Assembly (NCBI GenBank): GCA_018819405.1
Contig: JAHJQF010000001.1
Location: 577,377 to 641,376 of the forward strand
DNA length: 64,000 nt
Source: Patescibacteria group bacterium
Lineage (GTDB): Bacteria; Patescibacteriota; Patescibacteriia; UBA1558; GWA2-36-10
Reading direction: 5' to 3'
Numbering within the stretch: the first letter of the stretch is position 1; each line of letters begins with the position of its first letter. Below the pieces are notes generated by a model that was not told the DNA's origin, searched no databases, and saw only the letters and a program-made list of their open reading frames with translations. The position numbers were made by a program, and so were the translations under genes. Of this stretch, positions 1,545 to 29,200 are shown one piece after another.

Positions 1545-2699
1545 ATGAAAAAAAGCGATTTTGGGAGCATAATTTTTATGTTTTGCACTTTGATAATGAT
1601 TGTTCCCCGGCAGATCTTGGCTGTCGGGGACGCAGTCAAACAAATAACTGATAAAACAAAATATGTAGATCAGTATTTTGAGGTTAATCAAAATGGCCAA
1701 TTTAAATTGTATGTTTATTTAGGAGATCAAAAAATTGCTACTATAGATAATGATGATAATTATTTCAATTTGGACAACCATTTGAGCTCACATACCATTA
1801 TTACCAACCCGACGGGTCAAATAGTAGAGACAAATGATTATGATGATTATGGCAGTGTTATACACAGTGAATCATCAATAAATAATGATTATAAATTCAC
1901 TGGTAAGGAGTTTGATACAGAAACGGGCTTGCAATATTTTGGTCAGAGATATTATGATAGTGATGTTGGCAGATTTGCTAGTATTGATCCTTTGCTTATA
2001 TCTGAGATAAATCAATTTTTGTCTGATCCGCAACAGCTCAATAGCTATAGCTACAGTCGTAATAATCCAATTAGCTTAGTGGATAAGACAGGGGAAAAAG
2101 TGTCTGAGTTTCAGCCATATTATAGTAGTAGCGGGTTTTATGAATACAGGCAGGATTATGGTAAATATAGAGGTATGGAATTGGTAAGTGCTGGCGAGTA
2201 TTCGGGACAAGGTTGGCATGATTATCAATGTGTCGATTGGGTTAAAAAATTTGTGAATGACCAATATAAAGTTGAATTAGGCAGCATAGGTAACGCCAAT
2301 TTTTATAGTAAACAATCAAGTTTTAATGATTTTAATAAGAGTCACGACGGACAATATACTGTTTATAAAAATAATAGCAGTATAATGCCTCAAGAAAATG
2401 ATATTTTGACTTGGTCAGGTGGCGATTATGGACACGTAGGTATAATTGCGGAAGTAAGTTTTGATGGAAATTCTAATATAGGTTATGTTTATACATTAGA
2501 GCAGAATTATAGCGGTAAACAGGGACTATATAGTCAATCATTTGTTCGTTCATACAATGATAGTGGTCAGCCAGAATATACAGTAAATGATAGAGGTGGA
2601 TTAAAAGTTCAAGGATGGGCACGCTATAGTCAGCAGACTAGTATTCCATATAGTAATATATTATATACTCCCGCTCCGGGAAATTATATTTATGAATAG
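1545..2699 (+). CDS. mini-Rhs protein: signal/TM anchor + RHS repeat-associated core + C-terminal CHAP-domain (peptidoglycan amidase/peptidase) toxin
   Basis: N-terminal hydrophobic FGSIIFMFCTLIMIV. RHS core block DNHLSSHTIITNPTGQ...YKFTGKEFDTETGLQYFGQRYYDSDVGRFASIDP...NNPISLVDKTGE parallels the core of the 2170-aa protein downstream. The C-terminus has CHAP-like Cys (QCVDWVKKF) and His (GDYGHVGIIAEV) motifs. Confidence 0.6.
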   Translation: MKKSDFGSIIFMFCTLIMIVPRQILAVGDAVKQITDKTKYVDQYFEVNQNGQFKLYVYLGDQKIATIDNDDNYFNLDNHLSSHTIITNPTGQIVETNDYDDYGSVIHSESSINNDYKFTGKEFDTETGLQYFGQRYYDSDVGRFASIDPLLISEINQFLSDPQQLNSYSYSRNNPISLVDKTGEKVSEFQPYYSSSGFYEYRQDYGKYRGMELVSAGEYSGQGWHDYQCVDWVKKFVNDQYKVELGSIGNANFYSKQSSFNDFNKSHDGQYTVYKNNSSIMPQENDILTWSGGDYGHVGIIAEVSFDGNSNIGYVYTLEQNYSGKQGLYSQSFVRSYNDSGQPEYTVNDRGGLKVQGWARYSQQTSIPYSNILYTPAPGNYIYE

Positions 2700-3219
2700 T
2701 AAAAAAACAATATTAATTATAATTATCGTATTGGCAGCTATAATTTATTTTTATTTAAATTTTTATAAAAATAATAAAAAGCCCATTGGTTCTAATAACA
2801 TAAATGTCATAAATTTTCAGTCAGAAAATCAAGAATCTCCTGAAGGGTATAAAAAATTTGTTTCTCAAAATGAAAAATTAATCTTTTTTTATAAAAATGA
2901 TTGGGAATGCAGCGAAGTGGTTTATGATAAAAGAGTGGATTGTTATCCTATAGATAGGATCATGGAGGAATATGATTCAGGTCTAGATAAACAAATTGTA
3001 TATTATCCTGACATAAGTATTTATGACGAGAGTGATCTATGCTCTTTGGTCGTTGACCAAGAAGAATTATTAAAAGCAGAAAAGGAGCCGCTAGTATATA
3101 ATGAATATGGTGAAAATTATTATGGTCTTTTTTATAAAAAATTTAATAATTGTATGACAAAGATTATAACATTGCCCTACATTGATTCTCAAGAAAAATT
3201 AGAAGAAATAATAAGATAA
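2692..3219 (+). CDS. putative cognate immunity protein (N-terminal membrane anchor, extracytoplasmic body)
   Basis: Its start overlaps the toxin stop by 8 nt (translational coupling). TM helix ILIIIIVLAAIIYFYL. No recognisable catalytic motif. Its position immediately 3' of a CHAP-tipped toxin is typical of toxin/immunity pairs. Confidence 0.45.
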   Translation: MNSKKTILIIIIVLAAIIYFYLNFYKNNKKPIGSNNINVINFQSENQESPEGYKKFVSQNEKLIFFYKNDWECSEVVYDKRVDCYPIDRIMEEYDSGLDKQIVYYPDISIYDESDLCSLVVDQEELLKAEKEPLVYNEYGENYYGLFYKKFNNCMTKIITLPYIDSQEKLEEIIR

Positions 3220-3263: not shown

Positions 3264-6200
3264 ATGACAAGCATGAGAAAAATTAATAAATCCAGACTAG
3301 TAATATTATTTTTGATGTTTAGTCTGGTTTTTTCTAGTGTAGCGCCAAGTTTGGCACAGGCTAGAGAAATACTCACTCCAGTGGAAGTAGTGCCAGTAGA
3401 AGATTCAAAAGAAACAGGTATTCCTGTGGTGGAGATTTTGCCTTTGCCAGTAGAGGAATATCCTATTAATGATAAGCCTGTAGATATTGAGCCAATTATT
3501 GATGAGCCGGTTTTGTCACCAGAAGAGCGACTGGAAACACTTTTAGAAGATCCGCCAGCCGATATAACTTATTTGGATAAAGATGAGAAAAAACTGGCTA
3601 ATAAGAAATTAAATATAGATGTTGATAATAATACAGGTGCTTTAATTTATAATTATCCTATTCAAATTCCTTCAGGCCGTAATAATTTTCAGACAGATAT
3701 CAGTTTAACTTATAATAGCCAAGATAAAGAGACACATAATTTATTTGGTTTAGGATGGTCGGTAAACATTCCCAGTATAGAGGTAAGCACTAAACGGGGC
3801 GTTTATTATATGTATAGTAATTACGATTATATCTCATCTATGAGTGGTGAGTTGGTGCCGGTGGGCGCTGTCACTCCGTATGGTAATTATGGCGCTCGGG
3901 TTGAAAACGGCGACTATTTACAATATGAATTTTCTAGTATTACTAATGCTTGGACAGCGACCGATAAACAGGGGATAGTTTATAAATTTGGATCCAGCTT
4001 ATCTAGTCGTCAGGATAACCCTGAAGGACCGAGTATGATATATAAATGGATGCTAGAAGAGGTAAGAGATACAAATGACAATTATATTCGCTATGAATAT
4101 TATAAGGATCAGGGGCAGATTTATCCAGCCAAGATATTTTATACAGGGCACGGTAGCACCGATGGGATTTTCGAAATAGATTTTATCAGAGAGTCTCGTC
4201 TAGATGATTTGGAATCTTATGATAGTAGGTTTTTGGTCAAGAATAATTATCGTATTTCTGAAATACAAATAAAAGTGAATGGCTCTTGGGTCAAAAAATA
4301 TAATTTTAATTATACAGTTGGGGAAAATGGGTCTTTATCAATTTTGGACAACATTGTGGAAAGTGGTAGAGATGAAACAAGTGGACAAGTGATAACATTA
4401 CCCAGTGATGATATGAGTTATAGCCAGGATTTAGAAAGTTGGCAAGGTGGAATAGATTGGAATTTTCCAGTTGGTTTTATTAGTGACAATGGCTATCAGT
4501 CTTTTGATCTGGGCGTACGCATGGCTGATATCAATGGCGATGGATTGACCGATATAGTCAAAGGTTATAGAGATATAAAAGAAATTTATATTAATCATTA
4601 CCCCGATTGGAGTACTAGTACCACTTATTCATTGCCAGATTCTTTTATTTCGGGGGACAATTTTGATGATGGTTTGAGATTGGCCGATGTGAATGGGGAT
4701 AATTTAGTGGACTTGATAAAAGCTGTATATCTTCAGGACGAAGTTAGAGAAATCAGAGCGGTCTATATCAATAATGGTACAAACTGGGTTTTGGATCCTT
4801 CTTGGATTTTTCCTTTGAATTTTGTCAGGCATGATGATTCGGGTGCGGGTATAAGAAGTTTTGATTTGGGTACGCGTATGGCCGATATCAATGGTGACGG
4901 TTTGGTTGATGTGGTATTGGGTTCAAATATAGAAACAAACAAAATTTATATTAATAATGGACATGGTTGGGATTTGGAAACAAATTATACTTTACCTACT
5001 TATTTTGTAGATTCGGATCAGGACGCGGGCACTCGTTTTATGGATGTTAATAGTGATGGTTTGATAGACATTGTCAGAGGAGTGAATGCTTATGGTGCAG
5101 GAGGTGGAAATCAACATAATGAAGTTTATATTAATAATGGGCATGGTTGGGAACTGAATTTAAATTATAGTCTGCCCACTTATTTTGTAAATTTTGATGG
5201 TAGTTGGTATACAGATTATGGTACTAGATTATCAGATATCAATGGGGATGGTTTGATTGACATTCTTCGTGATATATATCCTGATACTTCCGAGGTTTAT
5301 ATTAATACGGGTCAAGGTTGGCATTTAAATAATAATTATTACATATTGAGTCATTTTTTAGGAGGGTCATTTATGATAGACCAAGGGGTTAGACTTTTTG
5401 ATATCAATGGTGACGGGCAAGATGATTTTATAAGAGCTAAAGAGGCTTATCCCAGATATGTTCATGTAAGTTTAGCAAATAAAGAAAATTTAGAAACAGT
5501 TAATAATTCTCGTGGCAGTCAAATTAATTTGGAATATCAGTCAGCTACTCAATATATAGACAGCCCAGACAATCTACCTAATCCCGACTTACCATTTAAT
5601 ATAGAGACAGTCAAAAATATTGTTATAGACGATGGTTTGGGAGGTATTGCCACTACTACCTATAGCTATAGTGGGGGAGACTACTATTATGCTGATCCAT
5701 ATGATAAAAAGTTTGCTGGCTTTGCAGAAGTAGAAAAAACAATTGGTAATCAGAAAACCACCACTTACTATCACCAAGGTAATGTTAGTGATTCTAGTCA
5801 AGGAGAATATCAAGATAGCTACTATAAGATTGGTAAGCCATATCGCCAAGAAATATATGATAATAATACCAATGGATTATTGAATCAGAATATTTACAAA
5901 TGGGAAGAAACCGACTTAGGGCATAATAATAAATTTGTATATAATTCTCAGAAGGCGTCTACTGATTTTACGCAAAGCATTCAATCAACAGCTGTGCAAA
6001 ATGAATATGATTTTAGCACGGGAAATTTACTTACTGAGCATAGTTTGGGTCAAGTGCAGGTAGATACTGCAACTGGTGAAATTTTGGATCAAGTAATTGG
6101 CGATGAAAAAGACACAAATTATGATTACGCCCAAAATACAACCAAACATATTTTAGCAGCTCCAAAAACTAAAATTATATCGAACACTTCTGATAGTAAG

Positions 6201-9200
6201 GAACAAAATCTATACTATGATAATTTACCATTAGGTCAAATAGAAAAAGTCAATTTGACTAAAGAGGACTATATAGAACAAGGCGTAGAAATAAATAGAA
6301 ATTTTAACAGTTATGGCTTGGTGTCTGAAGAAATTAGTCCAGAGGGTGATTCTACTGCTATTGTTTATGATAGCTTAAATCTTTACCCATCAGAAATTAC
6401 CAACGTCTTTAATCAAACTACCTATACGGAATACAATTTGCTTAATGGGCAACTTGCCACCTCCACTGCACCTAATGGAATGCTGACGATTAATAGTTTT
6501 GACGCTTTTGGTCGGCTGGTAGAGGTAAAAATTTCGGACCCAGATAATCCCACTACAACATTTATTAAACAAGAAATTGAATACCAAGATCCTTTTGTAT
6601 TTTTTAGATATAGTGACGATACAGGCTGGTTGTCTCCAACACAAACCGGAAAATACTATAATCAATTTTATAATCCAAGTAATGCTTATGCTAGTGACGA
6701 TATTTATACTACAGCCAGAGATTTTGGTAATGGTGGTTCATCAAGATTTCAATCATACGAAGGATTTAATATAAATCTTCCAGCTGCCTCTGAAATAATT
6801 GGCTTTGAAGTAATGAGTGAACATTTAGTAGATAATACTACCGATGTTGATGAATCTATAAGGTACTATTCTGCTAGTAATGGGGTTTGGTCAGATCCCC
6901 GATTTTTATCAGTTTCTACTATTGATCATGTAGATACAGTGGGAGGTTCCGATGATATTTGGGCATTAAACCCCGTAAGCTCTGATTTTATTAATGATAA
7001 TTTTTCAGTAAATTATTCTGGTTCTCGGCTTGATGGTGGGGATACTACTTGGTTTTTAGATGATATAAAAATTAAGGTTTATTATGGTGTAAATACTGAG
7101 ATAGGCTACAAAGAAACCAAAGACTATTTTGATGCCACTAGCTACATCATTTCTCGTGAATACTACGATGGCCTATATAGAGTAGTGCAAAAGAAATCTC
7201 AAACTGCTACTGCCAATCAGTATGCTACAGTAGATATCAGCTATGATTCTCAGGGTAGAGTAGATAGGCAGTCATTGCCATATATTACTTCTACTTTGGA
7301 ATATACAACAGCAAATCTTAGTCAACCAGCCAAGACCTATACCTATGATGCCTTAGATAGAGTATTGTCAGAAGCTACTCCAACTGGCGTGACCAGTTAT
7401 GAATATGATGGCTTCAAGACTACTATCACTGATCCAAACGGCAATATCAAAGAGCTAACCAAAGACGCCTACGGCAATTTGGTGGAAGTCAAAGAGCATA
7501 ATGATTCTAATATATATACCACTAGTTATGACTATACTTTGACCAACAAATTGGAAAAAATCACTGACAGTCAGGGTAATATTAGAAATTTCCACTACGA
7601 CGCCTTAGACAATCTAGACTGGCAGGATATGGTGCATTTATCATCAGTAGCCGATCCTGAGAAAATACAGTACACTCATGACAAAAATGGCAATGTGCTG
7701 ACTGAGACTAGCTTCAAGGGAGACGCTATTTCCTATGAGTATGATAGTTTAAATAGAGTGTTGTATGAAAAATTAGATAATAGTCCAGTTATTAGTTATG
7801 CCTACGATCAAAATGGTGACATTGGTCAGCTGTCTTTTGTAGATTATGGTGGAGGTAATTCCAAGGCCTATGACTATGATATACTAGGACGACTTACCAC
7901 AGCTACCACAACTATTGAAAATGAAGTCTTTGTCATGAAATATGACTACAATTTAAATGGTGACATCAAAGAAATACAATATCCAAATGCTTGGAAAGTA
8001 GCTTATAGTTTTGATTCCATTGGCCAAGTAAATGGTGTGTCTCTTGATAAAGGTCAGGGTCCAATGAGTATAGTAAATAATATTGTTTACAACCAAAATG
8101 GCCAGATGACTCATCTGGAGCGCGCCAATGGCGTAGTTAGTGATTATACTTATGATCCTCAGCAAAATTTCCGTTTAACTGATTTGATTAGCACTCAAGG
8201 TGCTACAACTTTGCAAGACATATCATATACTTATGACAATATCGGTAATATCACAAATATCACTGACAGCTCTGACACTGACTTGGCCAAGAGCGTGGAT
8301 TATGAATACGATGACTTCTACAGACTGGCATCGAGTACAGTCAGCTATGTCACTCATCCGGCTGACAATTATTCACGAGAGTATCAGTATGATCAGGTAG
8401 GCAATATGACCTACAACTCAGAACTAGGTACAATGAATTATGCCTTTGACAATCCACACCAGTTGTCCAGCTATGGTAGTCGCAATTTTAGTTATGACGA
8501 CGCTGGTAATATGTATTTAAATGGTGGTATTAGCAAATTTTCTTGGGACTGGAGAAATAGACTCAAAAACAGCTATGACATTGCTACCACCAAAAATAGC
8601 TATTATCAATATGACCACAACAATCAGCGCTTCTTGAAATACACTGAAGATTATGTATTTATTCCTCCAGATTTGGAAGATCCACCAATTGTGGGAATGA
8701 TGTCTTTATCTATGGACACTAGTGGAGGTACTTATGAACTCAGACGTGTCAAAGAAGATAAGTATGTAGATAAGTATTTTGAAAAAGACTTGTCTGATAA
8801 TGAAAAAAGCCACCTATTCCTAGGTAGTACCAGAGTGGCTAGTTTAAAAAATAATGATAATCCATATTATTATATATCTGATCATCTAAGCTCCAATAAT
8901 ATTATTACTGACAATTCGGGCAATACCCTTGAATTGAGTGATTATGAGCCTTATGGTAAAATAAACTATGAAACAGGTTCTTCAGAAAACAACTTCAAAT
9001 TTACCGGCAAGGAAATTGATGAAGAAAATGCCTTGCAATACTTTGGGGCGAGGTATATGGATAACCAGACTGGACGATTTACGACGGTGGATCCGGCTAC
9101 TCTTATACTTCACGATGGTCAGAAGTTGAAAGAGATTACCAGAGGTGATCTAGAGAGATTGTTGGCTAATCCGCAGAACCTTAATAGCTATGCATATGCG

Positions 9201-9776
9201 TTGAATAATCCAGTGATAATGAAGGATGATACTGGTGAGTTTGCATTTTTGGCTGTAGTCGCCGTTGCTTGGATTGCTGCTGAAGTAGGTTTTAGTGCGT
9301 GGGATGCTTATGATGCTGGTAATGCGTGGTTTGGTGAGGATACTAGTTCAAAAGAAAAGACATCATCTGGTGGATTCCTACTAGTAGGGTTGGCATTACC
9401 TGGTGGTGGGTATGGGCACATTGATGAAGGTGTTGATGTATTAAAAACGGTCGATAAAACAATTGGCAAATCAATTGATAACGCTGTAAATAAAATTGGT
9501 AATACAGTGTCAGATCATCTTACTAAAATGGATTATGCAGGCTTTATAAGAGATCTGAGTAAGGCACCAGTTTGGAGCAATAATTTAGGCAGGAATTTTG
9601 ACCATTATGATGAAGTTATGTCCGCCTATAAAGGTTTGCAAAATAATGTATCAAAGCTTACAAGATATTTAGATAATTATAATTTAGATAAGAAAACAGT
9701 CGACAGCGTTAACAAAGCTATTGATACAGCTAAAAGTCACATAGACAGAATAGATAATATATTAAAATCACATTAG
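3264..9776 (+). CDS. secreted giant Rhs/Tc-toxin-like protein: Sec signal + SpvB/TcB N-terminal domain + FG-GAP-like repeats + YD/RHS repeats + RHS core + unrecognised C-terminal tip
   Basis: Signal peptide ending ...VAPSLAQA. SpvB-N-like ISLTYNSQDKETHNLFGLGWSVNIPSIEV. Six or more D(I/V)NGDGL.D(I/V/L) repeats. Many YDxxGRL/YDxLxR YD repeats. RHS core DHLSSNNIITDNSG...KFTGKEIDEENALQYFGARYMDNQTGRFTTVDP...NNPVIMKDDTGE. After the core come about 178 aa with no recognisable toxin motif. Confidence 0.85.
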   Translation: MTSMRKINKSRLVILFLMFSLVFSSVAPSLAQAREILTPVEVVPVEDSKETGIPVVEILPLPVEEYPINDKPVDIEPIIDEPVLSPEERLETLLEDPPADITYLDKDEKKLANKKLNIDVDNNTGALIYNYPIQIPSGRNNFQTDISLTYNSQDKETHNLFGLGWSVNIPSIEVSTKRGVYYMYSNYDYISSMSGELVPVGAVTPYGNYGARVENGDYLQYEFSSITNAWTATDKQGIVYKFGSSLSSRQDNPEGPSMIYKWMLEEVRDTNDNYIRYEYYKDQGQIYPAKIFYTGHGSTDGIFEIDFIRESRLDDLESYDSRFLVKNNYRISEIQIKVNGSWVKKYNFNYTVGENGSLSILDNIVESGRDETSGQVITLPSDDMSYSQDLESWQGGIDWNFPVGFISDNGYQSFDLGVRMADINGDGLTDIVKGYRDIKEIYINHYPDWSTSTTYSLPDSFISGDNFDDGLRLADVNGDNLVDLIKAVYLQDEVREIRAVYINNGTNWVLDPSWIFPLNFVRHDDSGAGIRSFDLGTRMADINGDGLVDVVLGSNIETNKIYINNGHGWDLETNYTLPTYFVDSDQDAGTRFMDVNSDGLIDIVRGVNAYGAGGGNQHNEVYINNGHGWELNLNYSLPTYFVNFDGSWYTDYGTRLSDINGDGLIDILRDIYPDTSEVYINTGQGWHLNNNYYILSHFLGGSFMIDQGVRLFDINGDGQDDFIRAKEAYPRYVHVSLANKENLETVNNSRGSQINLEYQSATQYIDSPDNLPNPDLPFNIETVKNIVIDDGLGGIATTTYSYSGGDYYYADPYDKKFAGFAEVEKTIGNQKTTTYYHQGNVSDSSQGEYQDSYYKIGKPYRQEIYDNNTNGLLNQNIYKWEETDLGHNNKFVYNSQKASTDFTQSIQSTAVQNEYDFSTGNLLTEHSLGQVQVDTATGEILDQVIGDEKDTNYDYAQNTTKHILAAPKTKIISNTSDSKEQNLYYDNLPLGQIEKVNLTKEDYIEQGVEINRNFNSYGLVSEEISPEGDSTAIVYDSLNLYPSEITNVFNQTTYTEYNLLNGQLATSTAPNGMLTINSFDAFGRLVEVKISDPDNPTTTFIKQEIEYQDPFVFFRYSDDTGWLSPTQTGKYYNQFYNPSNAYASDDIYTTARDFGNGGSSRFQSYEGFNINLPAASEIIGFEVMSEHLVDNTTDVDESIRYYSASNGVWSDPRFLSVSTIDHVDTVGGSDDIWALNPVSSDFINDNFSVNYSGSRLDGGDTTWFLDDIKIKVYYGVNTEIGYKETKDYFDATSYIISREYYDGLYRVVQKKSQTATANQYATVDISYDSQGRVDRQSLPYITSTLEYTTANLSQPAKTYTYDALDRVLSEATPTGVTSYEYDGFKTTITDPNGNIKELTKDAYGNLVEVKEHNDSNIYTTSYDYTLTNKLEKITDSQGNIRNFHYDALDNLDWQDMVHLSSVADPEKIQYTHDKNGNVLTETSFKGDAISYEYDSLNRVLYEKLDNSPVISYAYDQNGDIGQLSFVDYGGGNSKAYDYDILGRLTTATTTIENEVFVMKYDYNLNGDIKEIQYPNAWKVAYSFDSIGQVNGVSLDKGQGPMSIVNNIVYNQNGQMTHLERANGVVSDYTYDPQQNFRLTDLISTQGATTLQDISYTYDNIGNITNITDSSDTDLAKSVDYEYDDFYRLASSTVSYVTHPADNYSREYQYDQVGNMTYNSELGTMNYAFDNPHQLSSYGSRNFSYDDAGNMYLNGGISKFSWDWRNRLKNSYDIATTKNSYYQYDHNNQRFLKYTEDYVFIPPDLEDPPIVGMMSLSMDTSGGTYELRRVKEDKYVDKYFEKDLSDNEKSHLFLGSTRVASLKNNDNPYYYISDHLSSNNIITDNSGNTLELSDYEPYGKINYETGSSENNFKFTGKEIDEENALQYFGARYMDNQTGRFTTVDPATLILHDGQKLKEITRGDLERLLANPQNLNSYAYALNNPVIMKDDTGEFAFLAVVAVAWIAAEVGFSAWDAYDAGNAWFGEDTSSKEKTSSGGFLLVGLALPGGGYGHIDEGVDVLKTVDKTIGKSIDNAVNKIGNTVSDHLTKMDYAGFIRDLSKAPVWSNNLGRNFDHYDEVMSAYKGLQNNVSKLTRYLDNYNLDKKTVDSVNKAIDTAKSHIDRIDNILKSH
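4500..5440 (+). repeat. FG-GAP/VCBS-like calcium-binding repeats (protein level) inside the giant toxin gene
   Basis: Recurring DINGDGLTDIV, DVNGDNLVDLI, DINGDGLVDVV, DVNSDGLIDIV, DINGDGLIDIL, DINGDGQDDFI spaced about 50 aa apart. Confidence 0.6.
7200..8900 (+). repeat. YD/RHS repeat region (protein level) inside the giant toxin gene
   Basis: Repeated YDxxGR(L/V) units: SYDSQGRVDRQ, TYDALDRVLSE, EYDSLNRVLYE, DYDILGRLTTA, EYDDFYRLASS, YQYDQVGNMTY. Confidence 0.65.
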
Positions 9777-9777
9777 T

Positions 9778-10221
9778 ATGATAGAAAATTTAGAAAAGTC
9801 ACTAAATGAGCTAGATGGCTCTATGGACGCTAGTGATCCCAATGATTCTCTTGTTAAAAAGGTAGAAGATATTAGGAAAAAGAGGTTAAAAGATTTAAGT
9901 GTGGATGATTTGGCATTATTGTTAAGGCAGCAGATTAGTTTAGGTTTTGTGGTACCGTTATCTTTAAGCAAATTAAATGAGAATATACTCATTGAGACTG
10001 AAGACACCGGATTTCGTCTACTATCAACTTTATTAAAAGTTGAAAAGGATTTTTGGTCTAGCAATGATGAGTTATATAATCAAACTGCAGATTTAATAAA
10101 TAGTAAGATGGATGAAATTATAAATCCAAAAATGGATAATCCAGTAGAATTAGATAGCTATATATCTGATGAGCTACCAGAGATTTTGAAACTATATCAG
10201 AGTTTTAAAGATTTAATATAA
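9778..10221 (+). CDS. putative immunity protein for the C-terminal tip of the giant toxin (small acidic cytoplasmic protein)
   Basis: Starts 2 nt after the toxin stop. 147 aa, acidic, no signal peptide. Position and coupling typical of Rhs immunity genes. Confidence 0.4.
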   Translation: MIENLEKSLNELDGSMDASDPNDSLVKKVEDIRKKRLKDLSVDDLALLLRQQISLGFVVPLSLSKLNENILIETEDTGFRLLSTLLKVEKDFWSSNDELYNQTADLINSKMDEIINPKMDNPVELDSYISDELPEILKLYQSFKDLI

Positions 10222-10266: not shown

Positions 10267-11073
10267 ATGACAGAATTTTTATTAAAATGGCAAACTCTTA
10301 TTGGAGCTGCACTTGGTCCCTTTCTTTTGGGGCTCGGTGCTTGGCTTAAGGGCGTAATGAGTAAGAAAGAAGAGCGTAAGGAGCATCTACGGCGAATAGA
10401 AATTAGTATAACACGAAGTTTAGATGATACATATAAAACACGCCAAAAACTACAAGATTTTGTTTCTAGATTAAGAATTCTGGTTAATCAAATAAGAGCC
10501 ATAACAGATAAGCACCATTTTTCTCTTGAGACCACAAATTATCCAGCTATAAGAGATGTCTATCGTGACATAGAAGCACCAAATTTTAAGATAAAAAGTT
10601 ATTACTTACATAATAAACTTTTATGGACAGATTCTGGCATTAAAGAGACAAATGAGGCCGTAGCGGGTCTTAAAAATGATTTTGCAGATTTACTAAGAAA
10701 GAACGAACTACATATAGCTTTGATAAGGCAAAATCAAAATCTAAATTCGGATCAACAGAGAGAAGACTATGCCTATAATCTGCAGGGATTTGCTAATTCC
10801 ATAGATGAATTTATAAATAAATTTATAAAACACGGTATAGAAATCATGACGCAAGTCAAGATATATAATGACCATTTGCGTAAAAGGAGTGGAAAATGGT
10901 TTTTATGGAAATGTGAAGGAATTAATTTTAGATATTTTCGTAGTAAAGTTAAACAGAAAGAATTTTCCAGAAATCTTAATTCACTAGAGCGTATTGATAA
11001 GATCATAGAGAAAGAAGTTAAATCAGCTATACAAGACGCAGAAAACAGAGCTGCTGAATTATCACGGAAATAA
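10267..11073 (+). CDS. hypothetical membrane-anchored helical protein (possible orphan immunity/accessory gene of toxin locus)
   Basis: N-terminal TM LIGAALGPFLLGLGAWL. The remainder is predicted helical/charged. No recognisable catalytic motif. Confidence 0.3.
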   Translation: MTEFLLKWQTLIGAALGPFLLGLGAWLKGVMSKKEERKEHLRRIEISITRSLDDTYKTRQKLQDFVSRLRILVNQIRAITDKHHFSLETTNYPAIRDVYRDIEAPNFKIKSYYLHNKLLWTDSGIKETNEAVAGLKNDFADLLRKNELHIALIRQNQNLNSDQQREDYAYNLQGFANSIDEFINKFIKHGIEIMTQVKIYNDHLRKRSGKWFLWKCEGINFRYFRSKVKQKEFSRNLNSLERIDKIIEKEVKSAIQDAENRAAELSRK

Positions 11074-11627: not shown

Positions 11628-11754
11628 AATAATCTCCGAGCCCTAGAAAAATCCTCAGAATTTGATCGCTGATAGTTGTGTATGCATGCTTTTTGCGGAG
11701 ACATTTTCCTGCTATTTGACTGGACAAAAAGAGGTAACAATTAAATAAATGTGA

Positions 11755-11791
11755 CCTCGGAGGTTAATTAACCTCCGAGGTTGTTTCTTTT
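11755..11791 (+). terminator. intrinsic terminator-like perfect 26-bp palindrome + T-tract
   Basis: CCTCGGAGGTTAATTAACCTCCGAGG followed by TTGTTTCTTTT. Confidence 0.5.
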
Positions 11792-14710: not shown

Positions 14711-16270
14711 ATGTCTAATATACAAAAAAAAGCAAAGACCTTAGCCCTTGTTATTTTGGATGGTTGGGGTTTGTGGGGAGAAGAAAAGGGCAATGCTATA
14801 GCGCAAGCTGATACTCCGGTTATGGCAAAATTGTACAAAAAATATCCCAATATTCAGATTCAGGCTTCAGAAAAATATGTAGGCTTGCCTGACGGTCAAC
14901 CAGGAAATTCTGAGGCGGGGCACATGAATATTGGCGCGGGACGGGTGATAGAGCAGGATGCAGTGACAATATCACGCTCTATAAATAATGGTACTTTTTT
15001 TAAAAATCCAGCTTTTTTGCAAGCTGCTAGCCATGCGGAAAAACACAAATCAGATATACATCTGATAGGCCTACTTTCCAACGGCACCAGTCCTCATTCC
15101 CATGATGATCACATATTATCTCTCTTGAGTTTTTTTATTTCTAAGACAAAACAAAATATTTATTTACACCTTTTTACTGATGGTCGTGACAGTCCTCCTT
15201 ATTCGGCTCTCAAAATATTGGCTCAGTATAATACTGTATTCAACAGTGATCGGGTAAAAATTGCCTCAGTGATGGGTAGGTTTTATGCGATGGACAGAAA
15301 AAAAGCTTGGGATAGAACCCGTAAAGCTTATGAGGCTATAGTTATAGGTAAAGGATATAAAGCTAAGAGCGCTGTCGAAGCTGTCAATCAAGCCTACAAT
15401 AGAGGAGAGAGCGATGAATTTATATTGCCGACAGTTATTAGTAAAAATAAAAAACCTCTTGGGCCAATAAATGATAATGATAGCGTTGTATTTTTTAATC
15501 TGCGTTCTGATAGAGCTAGGCAGTTGACCAAAGCTTTTGTACAAAAAGACTTTGAAAAGAAAAACGGAGGCACTTTCAAGCGCCAAGTAGTGCCCAAAAA
15601 TCTTATTTTTGTAGCTTTGACCGACTTTGGTCCTGATTTGGGTGGGGTGCTCACTGCTTATCCAGGTATTGATATACCAGATACTTTGCCGATAGCTCTT
15701 AAAGATGTCAGACAACTTTATATAGCGGAAACAGAAAAATATGCTCATGTTACATATTTTATAAACGGTGGTTATGATCATCCTATAGCTGGAGAGGATA
15801 GGATTGATATTCCTTCCAAAGATGTGCTTTCTTATGATAAAAAGCCAGAAATGAGTACCAAGGAAATAACTGATAAAGTAATACAATGTCTAAAAAATGA
15901 TAAATATGATTTTTTCTGTATCAATTTTGCAGCGCCTGATATGGTTGGCCATACTGGCAATCTCAAAGCGGGTATCAAAGCAGTGGAGGCAGTAGATAAA
16001 CATTTGGGTAGAATAGTGGATGAATTTTTGAAATTCAGAGGGACAGTAATAGTTACGGCCGATCATGGAAATGTAGAGGAAATGATAAATTTAAAGACAC
16101 AGGAGATTGATACCGAACACTCCATAAATCCAGTCCCTTTTATAATTGTTTCAGATAAAAAATATAAATTGAAAAAAACCGGCCGTCTTTCCCATATTGC
16201 ACCGACTATTTTGGATATCATGGGGATAGATAAACCAATATTAATGAAAGACAATAGTTTAATAAAGTAA
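14711..16270 (+). CDS. gpmI: 2,3-bisphosphoglycerate-independent phosphoglycerate mutase (iPGM), copy 1
   Basis: LVILDGWG N-terminal signature, HTGN metal-binding motif, TADHGN. 519 aa. Confidence 0.9.
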   Translation: MSNIQKKAKTLALVILDGWGLWGEEKGNAIAQADTPVMAKLYKKYPNIQIQASEKYVGLPDGQPGNSEAGHMNIGAGRVIEQDAVTISRSINNGTFFKNPAFLQAASHAEKHKSDIHLIGLLSNGTSPHSHDDHILSLLSFFISKTKQNIYLHLFTDGRDSPPYSALKILAQYNTVFNSDRVKIASVMGRFYAMDRKKAWDRTRKAYEAIVIGKGYKAKSAVEAVNQAYNRGESDEFILPTVISKNKKPLGPINDNDSVVFFNLRSDRARQLTKAFVQKDFEKKNGGTFKRQVVPKNLIFVALTDFGPDLGGVLTAYPGIDIPDTLPIALKDVRQLYIAETEKYAHVTYFINGGYDHPIAGEDRIDIPSKDVLSYDKKPEMSTKEITDKVIQCLKNDKYDFFCINFAAPDMVGHTGNLKAGIKAVEAVDKHLGRIVDEFLKFRGTVIVTADHGNVEEMINLKTQEIDTEHSINPVPFIIVSDKKYKLKKTGRLSHIAPTILDIMGIDKPILMKDNSLIK

Positions 16271-16282
16271 ATTTCTAACGGG

Positions 16283-17860
16283 ATGAACAGACCAAAACCA
16301 GTGGTATTAATTATATTAGATGGATTCGGTATTGCTCCACCGTCTCGAGCCAATGCAATTTCTTTGGCCAAGACGCCCAATCTTGATAAATATTCTTCCA
16401 ATTATCCGGTCATGCCGGTGGCTGCTTCAGGTGAGGCAGTTGGTTTGTCTTGGGGAGAAATGGGCAATTCCCAAGTGGGTCATTTATCATTGGGTTCAGG
16501 TGTTATCCCATATCAAAATTTGCCTAGGATTTCCAAGTCAATTATTGATGGTGATTTTTTACAAAACGAAGCTTTTTTGAAAGTTTGTGATCATGTCAAA
16601 AAAAATAACAGCGCCCTTCATCTTATTGGTTTGCTTAGCTCTGGAGGTGTGCATAGCTATAATGAACACCTTTATGCTTTGATAGATTTGGCCAAAGAAC
16701 AAAAAGTAGAGCGGGTTTATGTGCATGCTTTTTTAGATGGTCGCGATACACCTTATAATAGTGCTTTAAATTTTGTTACTAAACTGGAAGAAAGATTAAA
16801 AAAAGTAGGTTTGGGGGCTATTGCTACACTTAGTGGTCGTTTTTGGGCAATGGATAGAGACAATCGTTGGGACAGGACGGAAAAAGCCTGGCGAGCCTTG
16901 GTAGACGGCGTGTCTGATGAAAAATTTGAAGATCCCCTAGTGGCTATAGAAAAATCCTATGAAAAAAAAGTTTATGATGAAGAGTTTGTTCCAGTGGTGA
17001 TTGTCGATGACATGGGCAAACCACGAGGCACCATCAAAGACAAGGATGGGGTAATATTTTTTAATTTTAGATCAGATCGTGCTAGACAACTGACCAAGGC
17101 TTTGGTTTTGCCTGGTTTTGAAAAATTCAAAAGAGACTATTTCAAAAATTTGATGATGATTACTATGGCTGAATATGAAAAAGATTTGCCGGTTTTGGTG
17201 GCTTTTCCTCCTTTGGTCATAGAGACGCCTTTAGCTAGAATTATTTCTGAAGCCGGATTGCGTCAGCTTCATATTGCCGAAACTGAAAAATATGCTCATG
17301 TTACTTATTTTTTTAATGGTGGTCAAGAAAAAATATATGAAGGCGAAGACAGAGTACTGGTGCCATCACCTCAGGTTACTTCGTATGACCAAAAACCAGC
17401 TATGAGTGCCAGAGATTTGACAGCCAAGGTTACTCAGGCCATCAAAGAAGGCACTTATGATTTTATAGTGCTCAATTATGCTAATCCTGATATGATTGGC
17501 CATACTGGCAATATCCAGGCTACTATTGAAGCTATAGAAATATTAGATCAGTTGATTGGGGAAGCAGTAGAAACTACTTTGTCGTATGAGGGTGTAGTTT
17601 TAATAACCTCTGATCATGGTAATGCCGAGAGTCTTTATGACCTGCAGACCGGTGAGATAAACAAAGAACATTCCAACAATCCGGTGCCTTTATTTATTAT
17701 TGGAAAAGATTTTGCTGGTAAGGCAGTTTTGTCCGGTGTAGCCGGTACTGATCTTAGTCATGTCACGCCAGTGGGAGTGTTGTCTGATGTAGCACCGACA
17801 ATACTCAAGATTATGGGACTCAAAAAACCGCCCGAAATGACGGGCAGCTCTTTGATATAA
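16283..17860 (+). CDS. gpmI: 2,3-bisphosphoglycerate-independent phosphoglycerate mutase (iPGM), tandem paralog copy 2
   Basis: VVLIILDGFG, HTGN, TSDHGN. 525 aa. Clearly homologous to the upstream gene but diverged. Confidence 0.85.
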   Translation: MNRPKPVVLIILDGFGIAPPSRANAISLAKTPNLDKYSSNYPVMPVAASGEAVGLSWGEMGNSQVGHLSLGSGVIPYQNLPRISKSIIDGDFLQNEAFLKVCDHVKKNNSALHLIGLLSSGGVHSYNEHLYALIDLAKEQKVERVYVHAFLDGRDTPYNSALNFVTKLEERLKKVGLGAIATLSGRFWAMDRDNRWDRTEKAWRALVDGVSDEKFEDPLVAIEKSYEKKVYDEEFVPVVIVDDMGKPRGTIKDKDGVIFFNFRSDRARQLTKALVLPGFEKFKRDYFKNLMMITMAEYEKDLPVLVAFPPLVIETPLARIISEAGLRQLHIAETEKYAHVTYFFNGGQEKIYEGEDRVLVPSPQVTSYDQKPAMSARDLTAKVTQAIKEGTYDFIVLNYANPDMIGHTGNIQATIEAIEILDQLIGEAVETTLSYEGVVLITSDHGNAESLYDLQTGEINKEHSNNPVPLFIIGKDFAGKAVLSGVAGTDLSHVTPVGVLSDVAPTILKIMGLKKPPEMTGSSLI

Positions 17861-19178: not shown

Positions 19179-20218
19179 TGCTGTACCCAGTGATATTAGC
19201 CGGTGGATTGGGCACGCGTTTGTGGCCAGTATCCAACCAAAATAATCCCAAGCAATTCAAAGCACTTTTGTCGGATAAGACGTTACTACAGAATACTTAT
19301 GATAGGGTAGCTAGCTCTTTTGATAAAAAAAATATTTTTGTGGTCTCTTGTCAAAATATTGTTGACAACATCAGGCAGCAGATAGATATCTTGCCGGAAA
19401 ATATTTTAATTGAGCCACAGGCAAAGGGCACAGCTATTGCTATTGCCCTAGCAACTCTTAAAATAAAAAATATTGATCCTCAGGCAATCATAGTAACTGT
19501 AAATAGCGACCATTTTATAAAAAACGAAAAAGAATACACAAAAGCTTTAAAAAAAGCTGAAAAGGTAGTAGAAAAAAACCCAGACAAGATGCTTCTTTTT
19601 GGGGTCAAACCAGCTTATCCTGAGACTGGTTATGGCTACATTGAGACCAAGGGTTCCAAAGGCGATATTTATGAAGTAGCCAGCCTAAAAGAAAAGCCAG
19701 ATCTGGCTACGGCCAAGGCTTATGTAAAATCAGGTAAATTTTTGTGGAGTCCGGGAATTTTTGTCTTTAAAGCGGCTAGCTTGATTGATTGGTATAAAAA
19801 ATATTTGCCAGGGCAATATCAAGCTCTTTTAAGGATAGAGAAGTCACCGGATAATATAGCCAAGGAGTATGAGAAAATACAAAACATCTCCATTGATTAT
19901 GGACTTTTAGAAAAAATGGATAATATGCTGGTAATGCCCATAAATTTTACTTGGGCTGATGTGGGTCATTGGAGGAGTTTGCGTGATATTTTACTTGATG
20001 GTAAAGACAATGTCACCAATACAAGCAGCGTTACTGTTGATAGCAAAAACAATTTGTTGTATAGTTTTAGTGGTAAGCTCGTTGCTACAGTTGGGGTAGA
20101 GAATATGGTATTGGTAGAGACTGAAGATGTTATATTTTTGTGTCCGGCAGATCGTGCTCAGGATGTAAAAAAGCTTTTAGAGCAAATAAAAAATAATGGT
20201 TTGGAAAAATATTTATAA
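19175..20218 (+). CDS. manC: mannose-1-phosphate guanylyltransferase-like sugar nucleotidyltransferase
   Basis: YPVILAGGLGTRLWP nucleotidyltransferase G-x-G-T-R-L motif. 347 aa. Start overlaps the uppP stop. Confidence 0.7.
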   Translation: MMLYPVILAGGLGTRLWPVSNQNNPKQFKALLSDKTLLQNTYDRVASSFDKKNIFVVSCQNIVDNIRQQIDILPENILIEPQAKGTAIAIALATLKIKNIDPQAIIVTVNSDHFIKNEKEYTKALKKAEKVVEKNPDKMLLFGVKPAYPETGYGYIETKGSKGDIYEVASLKEKPDLATAKAYVKSGKFLWSPGIFVFKAASLIDWYKKYLPGQYQALLRIEKSPDNIAKEYEKIQNISIDYGLLEKMDNMLVMPINFTWADVGHWRSLRDILLDGKDNVTNTSSVTVDSKNNLLYSFSGKLVATVGVENMVLVETEDVIFLCPADRAQDVKKLLEQIKNNGLEKYL

Positions 20219-20258
20219 ACACTTGGAAAAAGCTATTTAATAATTAATTTCTAACGGG

Positions 20259-21254
20259 GTGAAAAAATTTATTTTTAAGTTAATTTTAATATTTTTGGTA
20301 GTTTTGCTAGCTTGGTTTTTTATTATAGTAAATTCCAACAACGGTCTATCAAAAAATAAAACATTTTTGGTTCAAGATGGCCAAGGTGTGAATCAGATTA
20401 GTAATGGACTATACAATGATAACCTGATAAAAAGTAAATTTGTCTTTGAATCGTGGTTGTGGATCAAACAGGCCGAGTCAAAATTAATTGCTGGAGTTTA
20501 TGATATTCCAGCTGGTGTTTCTATCCGACAGTTGACCAATCTTTTGATTTTGGGACCGCAGGATTCTCAGGAATCAGTCACGCTTTTAGAAGGCTGGACC
20601 AGAAAATTGATGTCCGAAGCACTAGACAGACACGGTATGTCTGGTCAAAAATTTATGGAGCTTAGCTCTGAAAAGATTGATTGGCAGGACGATTATGATT
20701 TTTTGCTTGATGCTCCTAGTAATGCCAGTTTGGAAGGTTATATTTTTCCAGACACTTATTTTATTGATAGCTCTACCAGTGAAGAATTTTTTATCAAAAA
20801 AACTCTCAACAATTTTAACCGCAAGCTTAGTGACTCTCTTCGCGAGGAAATAAATCGTCAGGGCAAAACTATTTTTGAAGTTGTTACTTTAGCCTCAATC
20901 ATTGAGAGGGAAGTGCCTGTTTATGCTGATAAAAAAATGATAGCGGATGTATTTTTAAAAAGGATTGACGCTGGTATTGGCCTGCAATCTGATGCTACTA
21001 TCAATTATATTACTGGTAAAGGCATGGAACAGCCTACTTTGGATGATTTAACTATTGACTCACCTTACAATACCTATAAATATAAAGGCTTGCCACCAGG
21101 GCCAATTTCTAATCCAGGTATTGATAGTATAGAGGCGGTTGTTTATCCGACTGCCAATGAATATTATTATTTCTTAACTAGCGATGACGACAAAGTGATA
21201 TATAGTCGTACTTATGAAGAACATTTGGAAAATAAAGCCCGTTATTTAGACTAG
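20259..21254 (+). CDS. mltG: endolytic murein transglycosylase MltG (YceG family)
   Basis: N-terminal TM, LTLASIIEREV, LQSDATINY, YNTYKYKGLPPGPISNPG motifs. GTG start. Confidence 0.85.
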   Translation: MKKFIFKLILIFLVVLLAWFFIIVNSNNGLSKNKTFLVQDGQGVNQISNGLYNDNLIKSKFVFESWLWIKQAESKLIAGVYDIPAGVSIRQLTNLLILGPQDSQESVTLLEGWTRKLMSEALDRHGMSGQKFMELSSEKIDWQDDYDFLLDAPSNASLEGYIFPDTYFIDSSTSEEFFIKKTLNNFNRKLSDSLREEINRQGKTIFEVVTLASIIEREVPVYADKKMIADVFLKRIDAGIGLQSDATINYITGKGMEQPTLDDLTIDSPYNTYKYKGLPPGPISNPGIDSIEAVVYPTANEYYYFLTSDDDKVIYSRTYEEHLENKARYLD

Positions 21255-21277
21255 AAAAATAGGAAATTTTACCCAGA

Positions 21278-21310
21278 AAACCCCCTAAAATAGGGGGTTT
21301 TTATATTTTA
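21278..21310 (+). terminator. intrinsic terminator
   Basis: AAAACCCCCTAAAATAGGGGGTTTTTATATTTT. Confidence 0.7.
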
Positions 21311-21340
21311 ACACGTGGTGAACGTAGTGAGCTTTACATG

Positions 21341-21369
21341 TTGACAAAAATATAAAAATATGATATAAT
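21341..21369 (+). promoter_or_regulatory. consensus sigma70-type promoter (TTGACA-17-TATAAT)
   Basis: TTGACA at 21341-21346, a 17-nt spacer, then TATAAT at 21364-21369. It lies upstream of the GC-rich gene. Confidence 0.55.
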
Positions 21370-21446
21370 AGTATATTACTTTGAGGTGGAATGCGACTTG
21401 TTTTAAGTTGCTAGCTAGTGATAAGCCCAAGCAAGGAGAAGCTGCA

Positions 21447-22115
21447 ATGACTCGTCTGTTCAAACTCGTTGCCCTCATCGCCATGTCCCTTTCCATCTTC
21501 GCGCTGCCGGCTGCGGCTCAGTGGCAGCACAACATCAAGTGGTCAGACTCCTGGCACGCTCCGCGAGCCAGGATCCTGTTTCACAACAGCGAGGAAGTCT
21601 CGCCTGGGCTGGAGCGGCGTATCCATTGCTTGTTCCCCAACGTCAACCTCGAAGGTCGGCTCAACTTCCTGGCGTATCTGGGTCTCAACTTCAAATCGAT
21701 GTCACATCTGGATGTCGAGCCAGCTATTGGCTACAACCTGCGTCAGGAGACGATGATCACCTCCACGCGCTTCAGTCTGTATGACGGCCAGTCCATGGCC
21801 TACAGCCGGGCTTATGCTTGGCTGGATCTGGAATACACCCCCAATGGGCAGGGCACCTACTATTTTGCCCAGGCTGAGTACAGCGCTTTGGAGTATGTCG
21901 AATTCGGATTGGAGTCTGAAGGCTGGGGAGGCTTGGACGGCCAAAGCAAATCCATCGGTCTCGGTCCGAACTTGATCCTGCATTTCCGCCGTGGACCGCA
22001 CAACATCAACGTCGATCTGGCGGTCCATTACCGTGACCTCGATGACGTGCCGGACGCGGGCTGGAAGCCGGAGTTCTTCTTCCGGCTGCATCTGATCCCC
22101 AACTTGACAGATTAG
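21447..22115 (+). CDS. GC-rich foreign-looking secreted protein (signal peptide; beta-rich, aromatic-rich), hypothetical
   Basis: Canonical SD AAGGAG 8 nt before the ATG. Signal peptide LVALIAMSLSIFALPAAAQW. GC-rich with CTG/CCG/GCG-rich codon use unlike neighbours. Multiple spurious overlapping ORFs on both strands, typical of GC-rich DNA. Confidence 0.55.
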   Translation: MTRLFKLVALIAMSLSIFALPAAAQWQHNIKWSDSWHAPRARILFHNSEEVSPGLERRIHCLFPNVNLEGRLNFLAYLGLNFKSMSHLDVEPAIGYNLRQETMITSTRFSLYDGQSMAYSRAYAWLDLEYTPNGQGTYYFAQAEYSALEYVEFGLESEGWGGLDGQSKSIGLGPNLILHFRRGPHNINVDLAVHYRDLDDVPDAGWKPEFFFRLHLIPNLTD

Positions 22116-22122
22116 GCTGCTA

Positions 22123-22170
22123 GGCCCCGAAAAACGTGGTTTTTACCACCTTTCGGGGCCTATTTCTTTT
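22123..22170 (+). terminator. intrinsic terminator (GC-rich hairpin + T-tract)
   Basis: GGCCCCGAAA...TTTCGGGGCC followed by TATTTCTTTT. Confidence 0.7.
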
Positions 22171-22195
22171 GCCTTGACCCGTCGGGTAGGCGGAC

Positions 22196-22224
22196 TTGAC
22201 AATATTGCCATTATAATATATAAT
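22196..22224 (+). promoter_or_regulatory. consensus sigma70-type promoter (TTGACA-17-TATAAT) for rplJL
   Basis: TTGACA at 22196-22201, a 17-nt spacer, then TATAAT at 22219-22224. Confidence 0.6.
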
Positions 22225-27320: not shown

Positions 27321-27332
27321 AGTTTGAAACTT

Positions 27333-27764: not shown

Positions 27765-27765
27765 T

Positions 27766-28755: not shown

Positions 28756-28855
28756 TATATAAAATAGCGATGAATCCCGTTAGAAATTCACAAAGTCATA
28801 ACGGGGATATATAAGTAAAATAATAAAAATAAATTTCACTATAATTTCTAACGGG

Positions 28856-29182: not shown

Positions 29183-29200
29183 CTAATGCTCTGGTAAATT

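Follow-up and report, generated by a model that had tools for sequence, protein, structure and literature searches.

Introduction

The closest described relatives of the gene examined here are the polymorphic toxins of the 'TcdB/TcaC' trafficking class, defined in 2012 (Zhang et al., Biol Direct 7:18; PMC3482391), which share a leader composed of a signal peptide, SpvB, and an integrin-like beta-propeller, followed by RHS repeats, a variable toxin, and a linked immunity gene. The literature that we found defines this class by comparative genomics alone. Cocoon formation and self-cleavage are established for the fused B and C components (BC) of toxin complex (Tc) toxins and for Rhs proteins, and Bacillus subtilis WapA is a Sec-dependent Rhs toxin of Gram-positive bacteria that carries wall-binding repeats and is not known to have an SpvB or a propeller part. 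A survey of 1,608 Tc loci counted no immunity gene among them and placed 96.4% of TcC proteins in Proteobacteria and 3.2% in Firmicutes (PMC7861908). Here we describe a giant gene of this general kind in a 64,000-nucleotide stretch of the genome of a Patescibacteria group bacterium (GenBank assembly GCA_018819405.1, contig JAHJQF010000001.1, positions 577,377 to 641,376 of the forward strand). This whole stretch is called the window below, and coordinates refer to it unless a related locus is named.

Patescibacteria are abundant and mostly uncultivated, and their dealings with hosts and rivals are largely unknown. We found no paper on SpvB or RHS toxins in Patescibacteria or candidate phyla radiation (CPR) bacteria. 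Our analysis indicates that the giant gene probably encodes the chief effector of a conserved locus with two toxins, a Sec-exported, single-chain, TcB-TcC-like antibacterial Rhs cocoon of the 'TcdB/TcaC' class. An earlier note, made from the letters of this DNA, had read the domains of the protein correctly and had missed its payload, the immunity gene, a domain inserted in the shell, a pre-toxin module, and a mini-Rhs gene upstream.

Results

A payload and immunity gene related to a characterised antibacterial pair

The giant gene (3264..9776, +) is a single uninterrupted open reading frame (ORF) encoding 2,170 aa, of which the 178 aa that follow …KDDTGE form the C-terminal region (aa 1993-2170). 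In a phmmer search, these 178 aa match the 'tRNA nuclease CdiA' chains 5j5v_B, 8zyc_B, and 5j43_F with an E value of 1.6e-7, and a three-sequence profile of the toxin region recovers the same chains at 1.9e-6. By homology to 5j5v_B, aa ~2056-2170 (9429..9773, +) make up an Ntox28/CdiA-CT(EC536)-like tRNA nuclease domain. Two relatives only were returned by a word-indexed search with the 178-aa C-terminus as query, and precomputed annotation lists PF15605 for the proteins P0001 and P0153. The latter is 100% identical to the giant protein over 99% of the query, is called 17 codons shorter, and comes from an 847,426-bp JGI contig.

The structures 5J5V, 5J43, and 8ZYC represent the CysK-activated, Mg-dependent anticodon-loop tRNase of uropathogenic Escherichia coli 536 (PMC11724271). 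The EF-Tu-dependent NC101 toxin was considered as their identity and ruled out by a mismatch in residue numbering and by the papers. In the strain 536 toxin, D155 is the Mg ligand, H178 the general acid, and E181 a catalytic residue, K142, N145, N191, and R187 contact the tRNA, and W176 and K170 belong to the catalytic loop (PMC11724271). The three catalytic positions align with D2090, H2114, and E2117 of the giant protein; K142, N145, and N191 are conserved, and R187 corresponds to K2123. As judged by alignment, the payload is homologous to the CdiA-CT anticodon-loop tRNase of E. coli 536 and retains its catalytic Asp, His, and Glu.

One nucleotide after the stop codon of the giant gene, a second ORF (9778..10221, +) encodes the predicted cognate immunity protein, 147 aa of the CdiI_3 family (Pfam PF18616, E 3.6e-14; 52.9 bits versus a cut-off of 28). 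Its best profile match in the PDB, at a weak E of 0.055, is 5j5v_C, the 'Immunity protein CdiI' of strain 536. Since it has no signal peptide and a hydrophilic N-terminus, we take it to be cytoplasmic. By these matches, both toxin and immunity protein have their homologues in one characterised antibacterial pair. A payload and next gene that form a predicted antibacterial pair of an Ntox28/CdiA-CT(EC536)-like tRNase and CdiI_3 do not fit the logic of Tc toxins, which are directed at eukaryotes and whose surveyed loci lack immunity genes (PMC7861908).

Between the Rhs core and the nuclease lies a hydrophobic pre-toxin module (aa 1993-2055; 9240..9428, +), in which a transmembrane (TM)-like helix, FAFLAVVAVAWIAAEVGF, with a Kyte-Doolittle 19-mer maximum of 2.04, is followed by the conserved stretch SAWDAYDAGNAWFGE and then by a second, Gly-rich hydrophobic stretch, GGFLLVGLALPGGGYG. 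The module is common to the homologues P0002, P0184, and P0246, each of which has a different toxin end, and a TM-like helix opens the C-termini of 28 of 108 homologues. CdiA-CT regions carry a cytoplasm-entry domain in their N-terminal part, and the features above suggest that the pre-toxin module is a membrane-entry module that takes its place.

Apparent exchange of toxin tips between related loci

Orthologues of the giant protein at three related loci (L001, 2,535 aa; L002, 2,495 aa; L003, 2,363 aa) are about 64% identical to it up to the D-x-x-G motif of the Rhs core, and beyond this point nothing is shared. In L004, a locus from a related metagenome-assembled genome (MAG), the giant gene is missing at the syntenic site and two orphan cassettes stand there instead. 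The first consists of a 496-aa Rhs C-terminal fragment with essentially the toxin of the window, together with a 146-aa immunity gene that is 77% identical to ORF 9778..10221. At the DNA level, the window and L004 are 0.5-0.65 identical over the Rhs part. Identity rises to 0.8-0.9 at about nt 9400 and holds as far as the immunity gene extends, and the jump lies about 170 nt past the predicted cleavage point, near the start of the nuclease domain. Such a sequence profile is the pattern expected from cassette exchange.

The second orphan cassette of L004 (9950..11270 of that locus) combines a 292-aa Rhs-core fragment, in which a Pre-toxin TG domain (PF14449, E 1.7e-10) precedes an unidentified toxin end, with a 146-aa ORF unrelated to CdiI_3. 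More widely, precomputed Pfam annotation of the best 120 homologues lists barnase-type RNase, EndoU, Tox-REase-7, Ntox21, Tox-ART-HYD1, NlpC/P60, and VanY domains as toxin tips.

Architecture of a predicted single-chain cocoon

The giant protein opens with a Sec-type signal peptide (aa 1-33; 3264..3362, +). Its n-region is basic, its hydrophobic core reads LVILFLMFSLVFSSVAPSL, and cleavage is predicted at a site of the A-x-A type, between SLAQA and RE; this leader is conserved in L001-L003. The signal peptide is followed by an acidic linker rich in Pro and Glu, recognised by its sequence features (aa 34-110; 3363-3593, +), by a region resembling SpvB and the N-terminus of TcB (aa ~111-400; 3594..4463, +; Pfam SpvB at aa 123-284, E 1.3e-15), and by six FG-GAP repeats (aa ~401-745; 4464..5498, +; FG-GAP_3 in three stretches, E 2.8e-14). 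A motif scan located exactly six D-[IV]-N-[GS]-D-[GN] motifs, starting at aa 422, 475, 541, 594, 658, and 713, and the FG-GAP block is a putative six-bladed beta-propeller equivalent to the gate domain of TcB. The number of FG-GAP repeats differs between orthologues.

The RHS/YD-repeat shell (aa 746-1893; 5499..8942, +), split by an insert, matches RHS_repeat in Pfam (E 1.1e-17) and RHS_core in NCBIfam (E 4.2e-22). It leads into the Rhs-associated core (aa 1894-1992; 8943..9239, +; NCBIfam TIGR03696 Rhs_assc_core at aa 1894-1991, E 3.2e-16), whose terminus, NNPVIMKDDTGE (aa 1981-1992), contains an aspartyl autoprotease motif. Cleavage is predicted after E1992, where …NNPVIMKD-D-T-G-E is followed by F. 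Across an alignment of 51 homologues, D1988 and G1991 never vary and conservation of D1943 is at least 90%, which supports a putative autoproteolysis site near DDTGE, where the earlier note had proposed to look for one. The protein contains no cysteine, and the GC content of the giant-gene region (0.33-0.37) falls inside the range of the remaining window (0.30-0.41).

All peptides quoted in the earlier note, including LTYNSQDKETHNLFGLGWSVNIPSIEV, were found in the translation, and the parts that it named are borne out in an uninterrupted reading frame. Sequence features support the signal peptide, and hidden Markov model (HMM) matches far beyond chance support the SpvB-N block, the FG-GAP repeats (at least six in the note), the RHS shell, and the Rhs core. 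No Pfam match to PAAR, prePAAR, VgrG-loading, LXG, or WXG domains was found in the giant protein, nor was a membrane anchor, a sortase signal, or a wall-binding domain. The lack of a PAAR, LXG, or WXG match agrees with the earlier note's prediction of Sec export without a leader of the type VI or type VII secretion system (T6SS, T7SS).

The kinship to Tc B/C components and Rhs polymorphic toxins that had been proposed is supported by both sequence and fold. In phmmer searches, the FG-GAP region matches YenB (aa 349-793) and TcdB1 (aa 508-821), and by sequence the N-terminal part of the protein as a whole matches YenB and TcdB1 and the C-terminal part TccC2 and YenC2. An AlphaFold2 (AF2) model of the shell, computed for aa 800-1995 from the alignment of 51 homologues, consists almost entirely of beta-hairpins and has a predicted local distance difference test score (pLDDT) of 86 and a predicted template-modelling score (pTM) of 0.79. 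Compared with the PDB by Foldseek, it best matches TcdB2-TccC3 fusions (E ~1e-48, TMq 0.67-0.69); full-length T6SS Rhs proteins come next with a TMq of 0.38-0.57, and teneurins reach 0.30-0.41. According to this model, the giant protein is a single-chain BC-type cocoon.

A beta-sandwich domain inserted in the shell

A domain of 170 aa, a beta-sandwich by AF2 modelling, is inserted in the shell (aa 1113-1281; 6600..7106, +). It is missing from L001-L003, stands at the equivalent site in P0154, and lies within the shell region of P0167. Its family comprises 678 representative proteins at E<=1e-3, in which the domain (~160-200 aa, starting M-A-D-T-G-W-K-S-P-T-A-T-G) occurs alone or repeated in large proteins, or is fused to Peptidase_M23, GH25 lysozyme, dockerin, and VWA+SpaA pilus modules. 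Neither the insert nor its relatives matched a Pfam family, and a PHROG match was obtained for just one of 32 members.

Modelled with 31 relatives, the insert folds into a confident beta-sandwich (pLDDT 93), whereas its pLDDT in the model of aa 800-1995 is only 40-65. The fold resembles carbohydrate-binding modules (CBM) 16, 4, 61, 11, and 35 and Cry domain III at a TM-score of ~0.4-0.46, and is closer to uncharacterised proteins from the tails, baseplates, and fibres of tailed phages (TMq up to 0.75). Other domains are found in the family of the giant protein as well, namely Laminin_G_3 at other shell positions in L001 and L002 and CBM_4_9, LysM, and DUF2341 in further homologues (best 120, precomputed Pfam). 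The modelled fold makes the insert a candidate surface-glycan or receptor-binding module, and we infer that the giant-protein family consists of cocoons decorated with exchangeable surface-binding modules.

An upstream mini-Rhs gene with a candidate immunity gene

Upstream of the giant gene, a mini-Rhs toxin of 384 aa (1545..2699, +) combines a signal peptide, an Rhs core of ~130 aa ending NNPISLVDKTGE, and a CHAP peptidoglycan-hydrolase domain (NCBIfam Rhs_assc_core at aa 99-183, E 2.4e-21; Pfam CHAP at aa 223-321, E 1.2e-10). It has just the last ~130 aa of an Rhs protein and no shell. Orthologues occupy the same position in L001-L003 and L005-L007, and among them the N-terminal half is kept and the part after the core is swapped between CHAP, Peptidase_M15_4/VanY, and unknown domains. 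We found 60 relatives of the mini-Rhs, several of which share a contig with a homologue of the giant protein.

The ORF between the mini-Rhs and the giant gene (2692..3219, +) encodes 175 aa with an N-terminal transmembrane anchor, ILIIIIVLAAIIYFYLNF, and has no Pfam or NCBIfam match. The ORFs at this position in L001-L003 also have a hydrophobic N-terminus and are non-homologous (16-29% identity), and L005-L007 have ORFs of similar size there without a family match. ORF 2692..3219 would fit an extracytoplasmic immunity protein against the wall hydrolase and is our candidate for immunity to the CHAP toxin. The predicted compartments agree in both pairs, with a cytoplasmic immunity protein beside the tRNase and a membrane-anchored one beside the CHAP domain.

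Distribution and conservation of the locus

A whole-protein search in which 8,000 candidates were scored yielded at least 721 homologues of the giant protein at E<=1e-20. The best 120 of these 721 are all annotated with SpvB plus FG-GAP and/or RHS (YD-shell), and their named sources (Komeilibacteria, Parcubacteria, Ryanbacteria, Falkowbacteria, Uhrbacteria, Paceibacterota, and Gracilibacteria) are nearly all Patescibacteria; one source among them is Ca. Methanoperedens. Close loci in species-representative genomes were found only in MAGs of Ca. Parcubacteria, Ca. Komeilibacteria, and the 'Patescibacteria group'. The window and L005-L007 have a common gene order, in which CYTH is followed at some distance by the mini-Rhs, a small ORF, the giant gene, and a small ORF, and then, further on, by a 130-aa ORF, phosphoglycerate kinase (PGK), enolase, and cofactor-independent phosphoglycerate mutase (iPGM). 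The four-gene core of this order is also present in L001-L003, and synteny is kept in at least six related genomes.

The toxin locus is conserved and apparently vertically inherited in this clade and is no anomaly of a minimal genome. Its retained synteny speaks for the importance to lifestyle that the earlier note had assumed, whereas the number and source of the homologues contradict its description of such a gene as unexpected in this kind of genome. That the genome is small, AT-rich, and reduced was judged correctly; besides the toxin locus, the window encodes PGK, enolase, a penicillin-binding protein (PBP), a P-type ATPase, and an FeFe hydrogenase. The stated lack of murE is doubtful, since a cell-wall cluster (27324..32291) contains mraZ, rsmH, a 108-aa ORF, an ftsI-like PBP, and, at the usual murE position after ftsI, a Mur ligase of 421 aa with Mur_ligase_M and Mur_ligase_C domains (31026..32291).

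Several further features of the region were recorded. Directly past the immunity gene, ORF 10267..11073 encodes 268 aa that include a TM helix at the N-terminus and a coiled coil, and has no family match; an ORF of about this size after the immunity gene was found in none of L005-L007. Between the toxin locus and the 130-aa ORF and PGK lies a strong bidirectional terminator-like hairpin with a 15-bp stem (11751..11784), which may be the end of a transcription unit. A promoter scan of the AT-rich window was uninformative (85 sites versus 63 expected). After PGK and enolase, tandem iPGM paralogues of 519 and 525 aa occupy 14711..17860, and L004 has a matching pair of 526 and 525 aa (19499..22676 of that locus). 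A 705-aa ORF on the reverse strand (23498..25615, -) has no family match. The Rfam 'antisense RNA' model HPnc0260 matches 32669..32797 (-) with 63.4 bits versus a gathering score of 59; the match overlaps tRNA-Val (32631..32707, +) and may be spurious, driven by the tRNA.

A few genes upstream of the toxin locus, L001 (6418..9210) and L003 (2329..5169) encode a 7TM-GAF histidine kinase, which could be a regulator of the locus. A 937-aa ORF of L002 (4986..7799) is likened to these kinases by size and position alone. The upstream ORFs of ~930 aa in L001 and L003 had been candidates for a TcA and were rejected on identification as this kinase.

Discussion

A proposed route of delivery for the encapsulated nuclease

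The domains of the giant protein and its neighbours point to the following sequence of events. The protein would be exported by Sec, as its leader implies, after which the shell would close round the unfolded 178-aa C-terminus, as its fold and the Tc BC and Rhs families suggest, and the Rhs aspartyl protease would cut after E1992, as it does in these families. The propeller and the insert may then bind a surface glycan of a neighbouring cell, and the mini-Rhs may free its CHAP wall hydrolase and so loosen the target wall; both steps are less certain, the former being suggested by domain families and the latter by conserved linkage. More speculatively, passage of the nuclease across the membrane of the target cell could be provided by the hydrophobic module, with no TcA channel involved. 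Once inside, the nuclease would cut tRNA anticodon loops and stop translation, as expected from its homology and catalytic residues, and the cytoplasmic CdiI_3 protein, by homology and gene position, would neutralise the toxin and shield the producer and its kin.

Because cytoplasmic immunity would protect producer and kin, the main targets are likely to be bacterial competitors whose envelope resembles that of the producer, namely related Patescibacteria. The same targets are favoured by the hypervariable tips, by the orphan cassettes, and by a candidate immunity protein outside the cytoplasm. A TcA-like gene was found neither among the scanned ORFs of the window nor in the ~20-30 kb that surround each locus from L001 to L007. 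Given no TcA nearby, a tRNase cargo with an immunity gene, and Tc loci that lack immunity, we file the gene as a polymorphic antibacterial Rhs toxin and not as a Tc subunit. A tentative extension, which we hold to be possible and rather doubtful, is that Patescibacteria use a self-sufficient, TcA-independent BC cocoon, in which grafted domains and a variable propeller pick the target, the mini-Rhs opens the wall, and the hydrophobic module crosses the membrane. If true, this would be a new design of contact weapon, for host competition or host exploitation by ultra-small episymbionts.

Several points weigh against an antibacterial cocoon that works in this way. The case rests on sequence and predicted structure. 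The Pfam Ntox28 model scores 23.9 bits on the toxin region (E 4.9e-5), just under its gathering score of 25, and two residues of the catalytic loop are replaced, W176 by F2112 and K170 by Ser. The GYGI tail, in which I227 belongs to the part that anchors the E. coli 536 toxin to its activator CysK (PMC11724271), is missing from the giant protein, which ends …DRIDNILKSH, so its activity or its activator may differ from those of the E. coli enzyme. In the cleavage motif, Asp replaces the usual Pro of D-P-x-G (here D-D-T-G-E); non-Pro variants also occur in a minority of the homologues. That the shell insert faces outward is a supposition. Immunity genes are needed for self-protection in any case and are no proof of kin targeting, and the absence of a TcA covers just the 64 kb of the window and the flanks of the related loci. 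Finally, the BC cocoons known so far depend on TcA for opening and translocation, and to our knowledge no TcA-independent route has been demonstrated.

Other roles for the same gene

The alternative that survives best keeps the molecule and changes its target: an episymbiont would disable or lyse its host bacterium to feed, with the immunity gene serving for self-protection during synthesis. Patescibacteria are generally regarded as dependent on host cells, and the conserved, vertically inherited core locus beside glycolysis genes, as well as its combination of a wall hydrolase, modules resembling lectins or phage receptor-binding proteins, and a translation poison, would suit such a feeding habit. 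We nevertheless think it unlikely, because C-termini and immunity genes that are hypervariable between close relatives, together with orphan toxin-immunity cassettes in a related genome whose corresponding site lacks the giant gene, are a signature of conflict with kin or competitors and not of a fixed host target. Moreover, extracytoplasmic immunity to CHAP, for which there is a candidate gene, would imply that the toxin reaches walls like those of the producer itself.

A second alternative, for which we see little room, is that the protein is mainly a teneurin-like adhesin, whose shell, propeller, and lectin domains attach the cell to a partner and whose toxin tip is secondary or vestigial. 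TEN_YD-shell does appear in the precomputed Pfam lists and teneurins are among the fold matches, but they fit worse than Tc BC (TMq 0.30-0.41 versus 0.67-0.69). The variable FG-GAP, LamG, CBM, and LysM decorations of the family would serve adhesion, as would the fusion of the insert family to VWA+SpaA pilus adhesins; the giant protein, however, carries none of the anchor, sortase, or wall-binding features sought and has a cleavable A-x-A signal. A vestigial tip is also hard to reconcile with an autoprotease motif, nuclease residues, and a matched immunity gene that are retained and exchanged as a cassette.

Least probable is a BC subunit of a classical ABC (Tc) toxin for eukaryotic targets with its TcA pentamer encoded elsewhere, since TcdB2-TccC3 as best structural match, an SpvB N-terminus and six-repeat propeller like the TcA-binding gate of TcB, and the existence of B-C fusions in true Tc loci (PMC7861908) stand against the lack of a TcA-like gene in the window and in the flanks of L001-L007, a bacterial-type tRNase cargo with an adjacent immunity gene, the protein's own Sec signal peptide, and the near restriction of surveyed TcC proteins to Proteobacteria and Firmicutes.

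What the locus implies

The antibacterial Rhs cocoon thus remains our preferred account of the giant gene, which takes up ~0.8% of a genome of roughly 0.85 Mb. A locus whose position is conserved while its toxin tips and binding inserts swap suggests that lasting conflict with other cells belongs to the core of Patescibacteria biology. The family offers a natural set of BC-type cocoons with grafted binding domains, apparently TcA-free, and cocoons of this kind are relevant to the re-engineering of Tc and Rhs cocoons for protein delivery. Independently of the cocoon, the shell insert defines a large unannotated family, the 678 representative proteins counted above, which occurs on wall hydrolases and pilus adhesins and has a phage-tail-like fold.

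Comparison with known systems

The giant gene has all four features of the 'TcdB/TcaC' class: the leader, the RHS shell and core, the variable C-terminus, and downstream immunity, the last with orphan cassettes in relatives. What sets it apart is a lectin-like domain inserted in the shell, the hydrophobic module ahead of the toxin, and a mini-Rhs gene as its constant companion, and Patescibacteria do not appear in the phylum lists quoted from the 2012 survey (PMC3482391). With the Tc BC cocoons of Photorhabdus (TcdB2-TccC3; 4O9X, 6H6G) and Yersinia (YenB-YenC2; 4IGL) it shares SpvB, the propeller, the RHS shell, and the autoprotease core. Unlike these, the giant protein forms one chain, carries a Sec signal of its own and an inserted shell domain, and has no TcA gene nearby. 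Its predicted cargo is an antibacterial tRNase accompanied by an immunity gene, a partner missing from Tc loci (PMC7861908).

Compared with CdiA-CT/CdiI of E. coli 536, both toxin and immunity protein are homologous, and the Asp that binds Mg, the His that acts as general acid, the Glu, and several tRNA contacts are kept. The carrier is an Rhs cocoon instead of a CdiA filament, a hydrophobic module stands instead of the cytoplasm-entry domain, and there is no GYGI. The T6SS Rhs effectors (RhsA, Tse5, Tse15, and RhsP), which are among the sequence and fold matches, likewise have an RHS cocoon and an encapsulated toxin that is cut by an Rhs-core aspartyl protease; the giant protein differs from them in having no PAAR, VgrG-binding, or clade domain and in starting with a signal peptide, and its fold match to them is weaker. 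WapA-type proteins share a Sec signal, an RHS shell, and a polymorphic toxin with immunity, and they likewise act in competition between bacteria with no injection machine devoted to them, as described for Streptococcus suis WapA (PMC12704120).

The giant gene is therefore of a kind known from comparative genomics, and its unusual parts are Patescibacteria as its lineage, the insert, the pre-toxin module, and the mini-Rhs. Since it is well explained by a toxin-immunity pair and is common in its lineage, the surprise that it offers is moderate.

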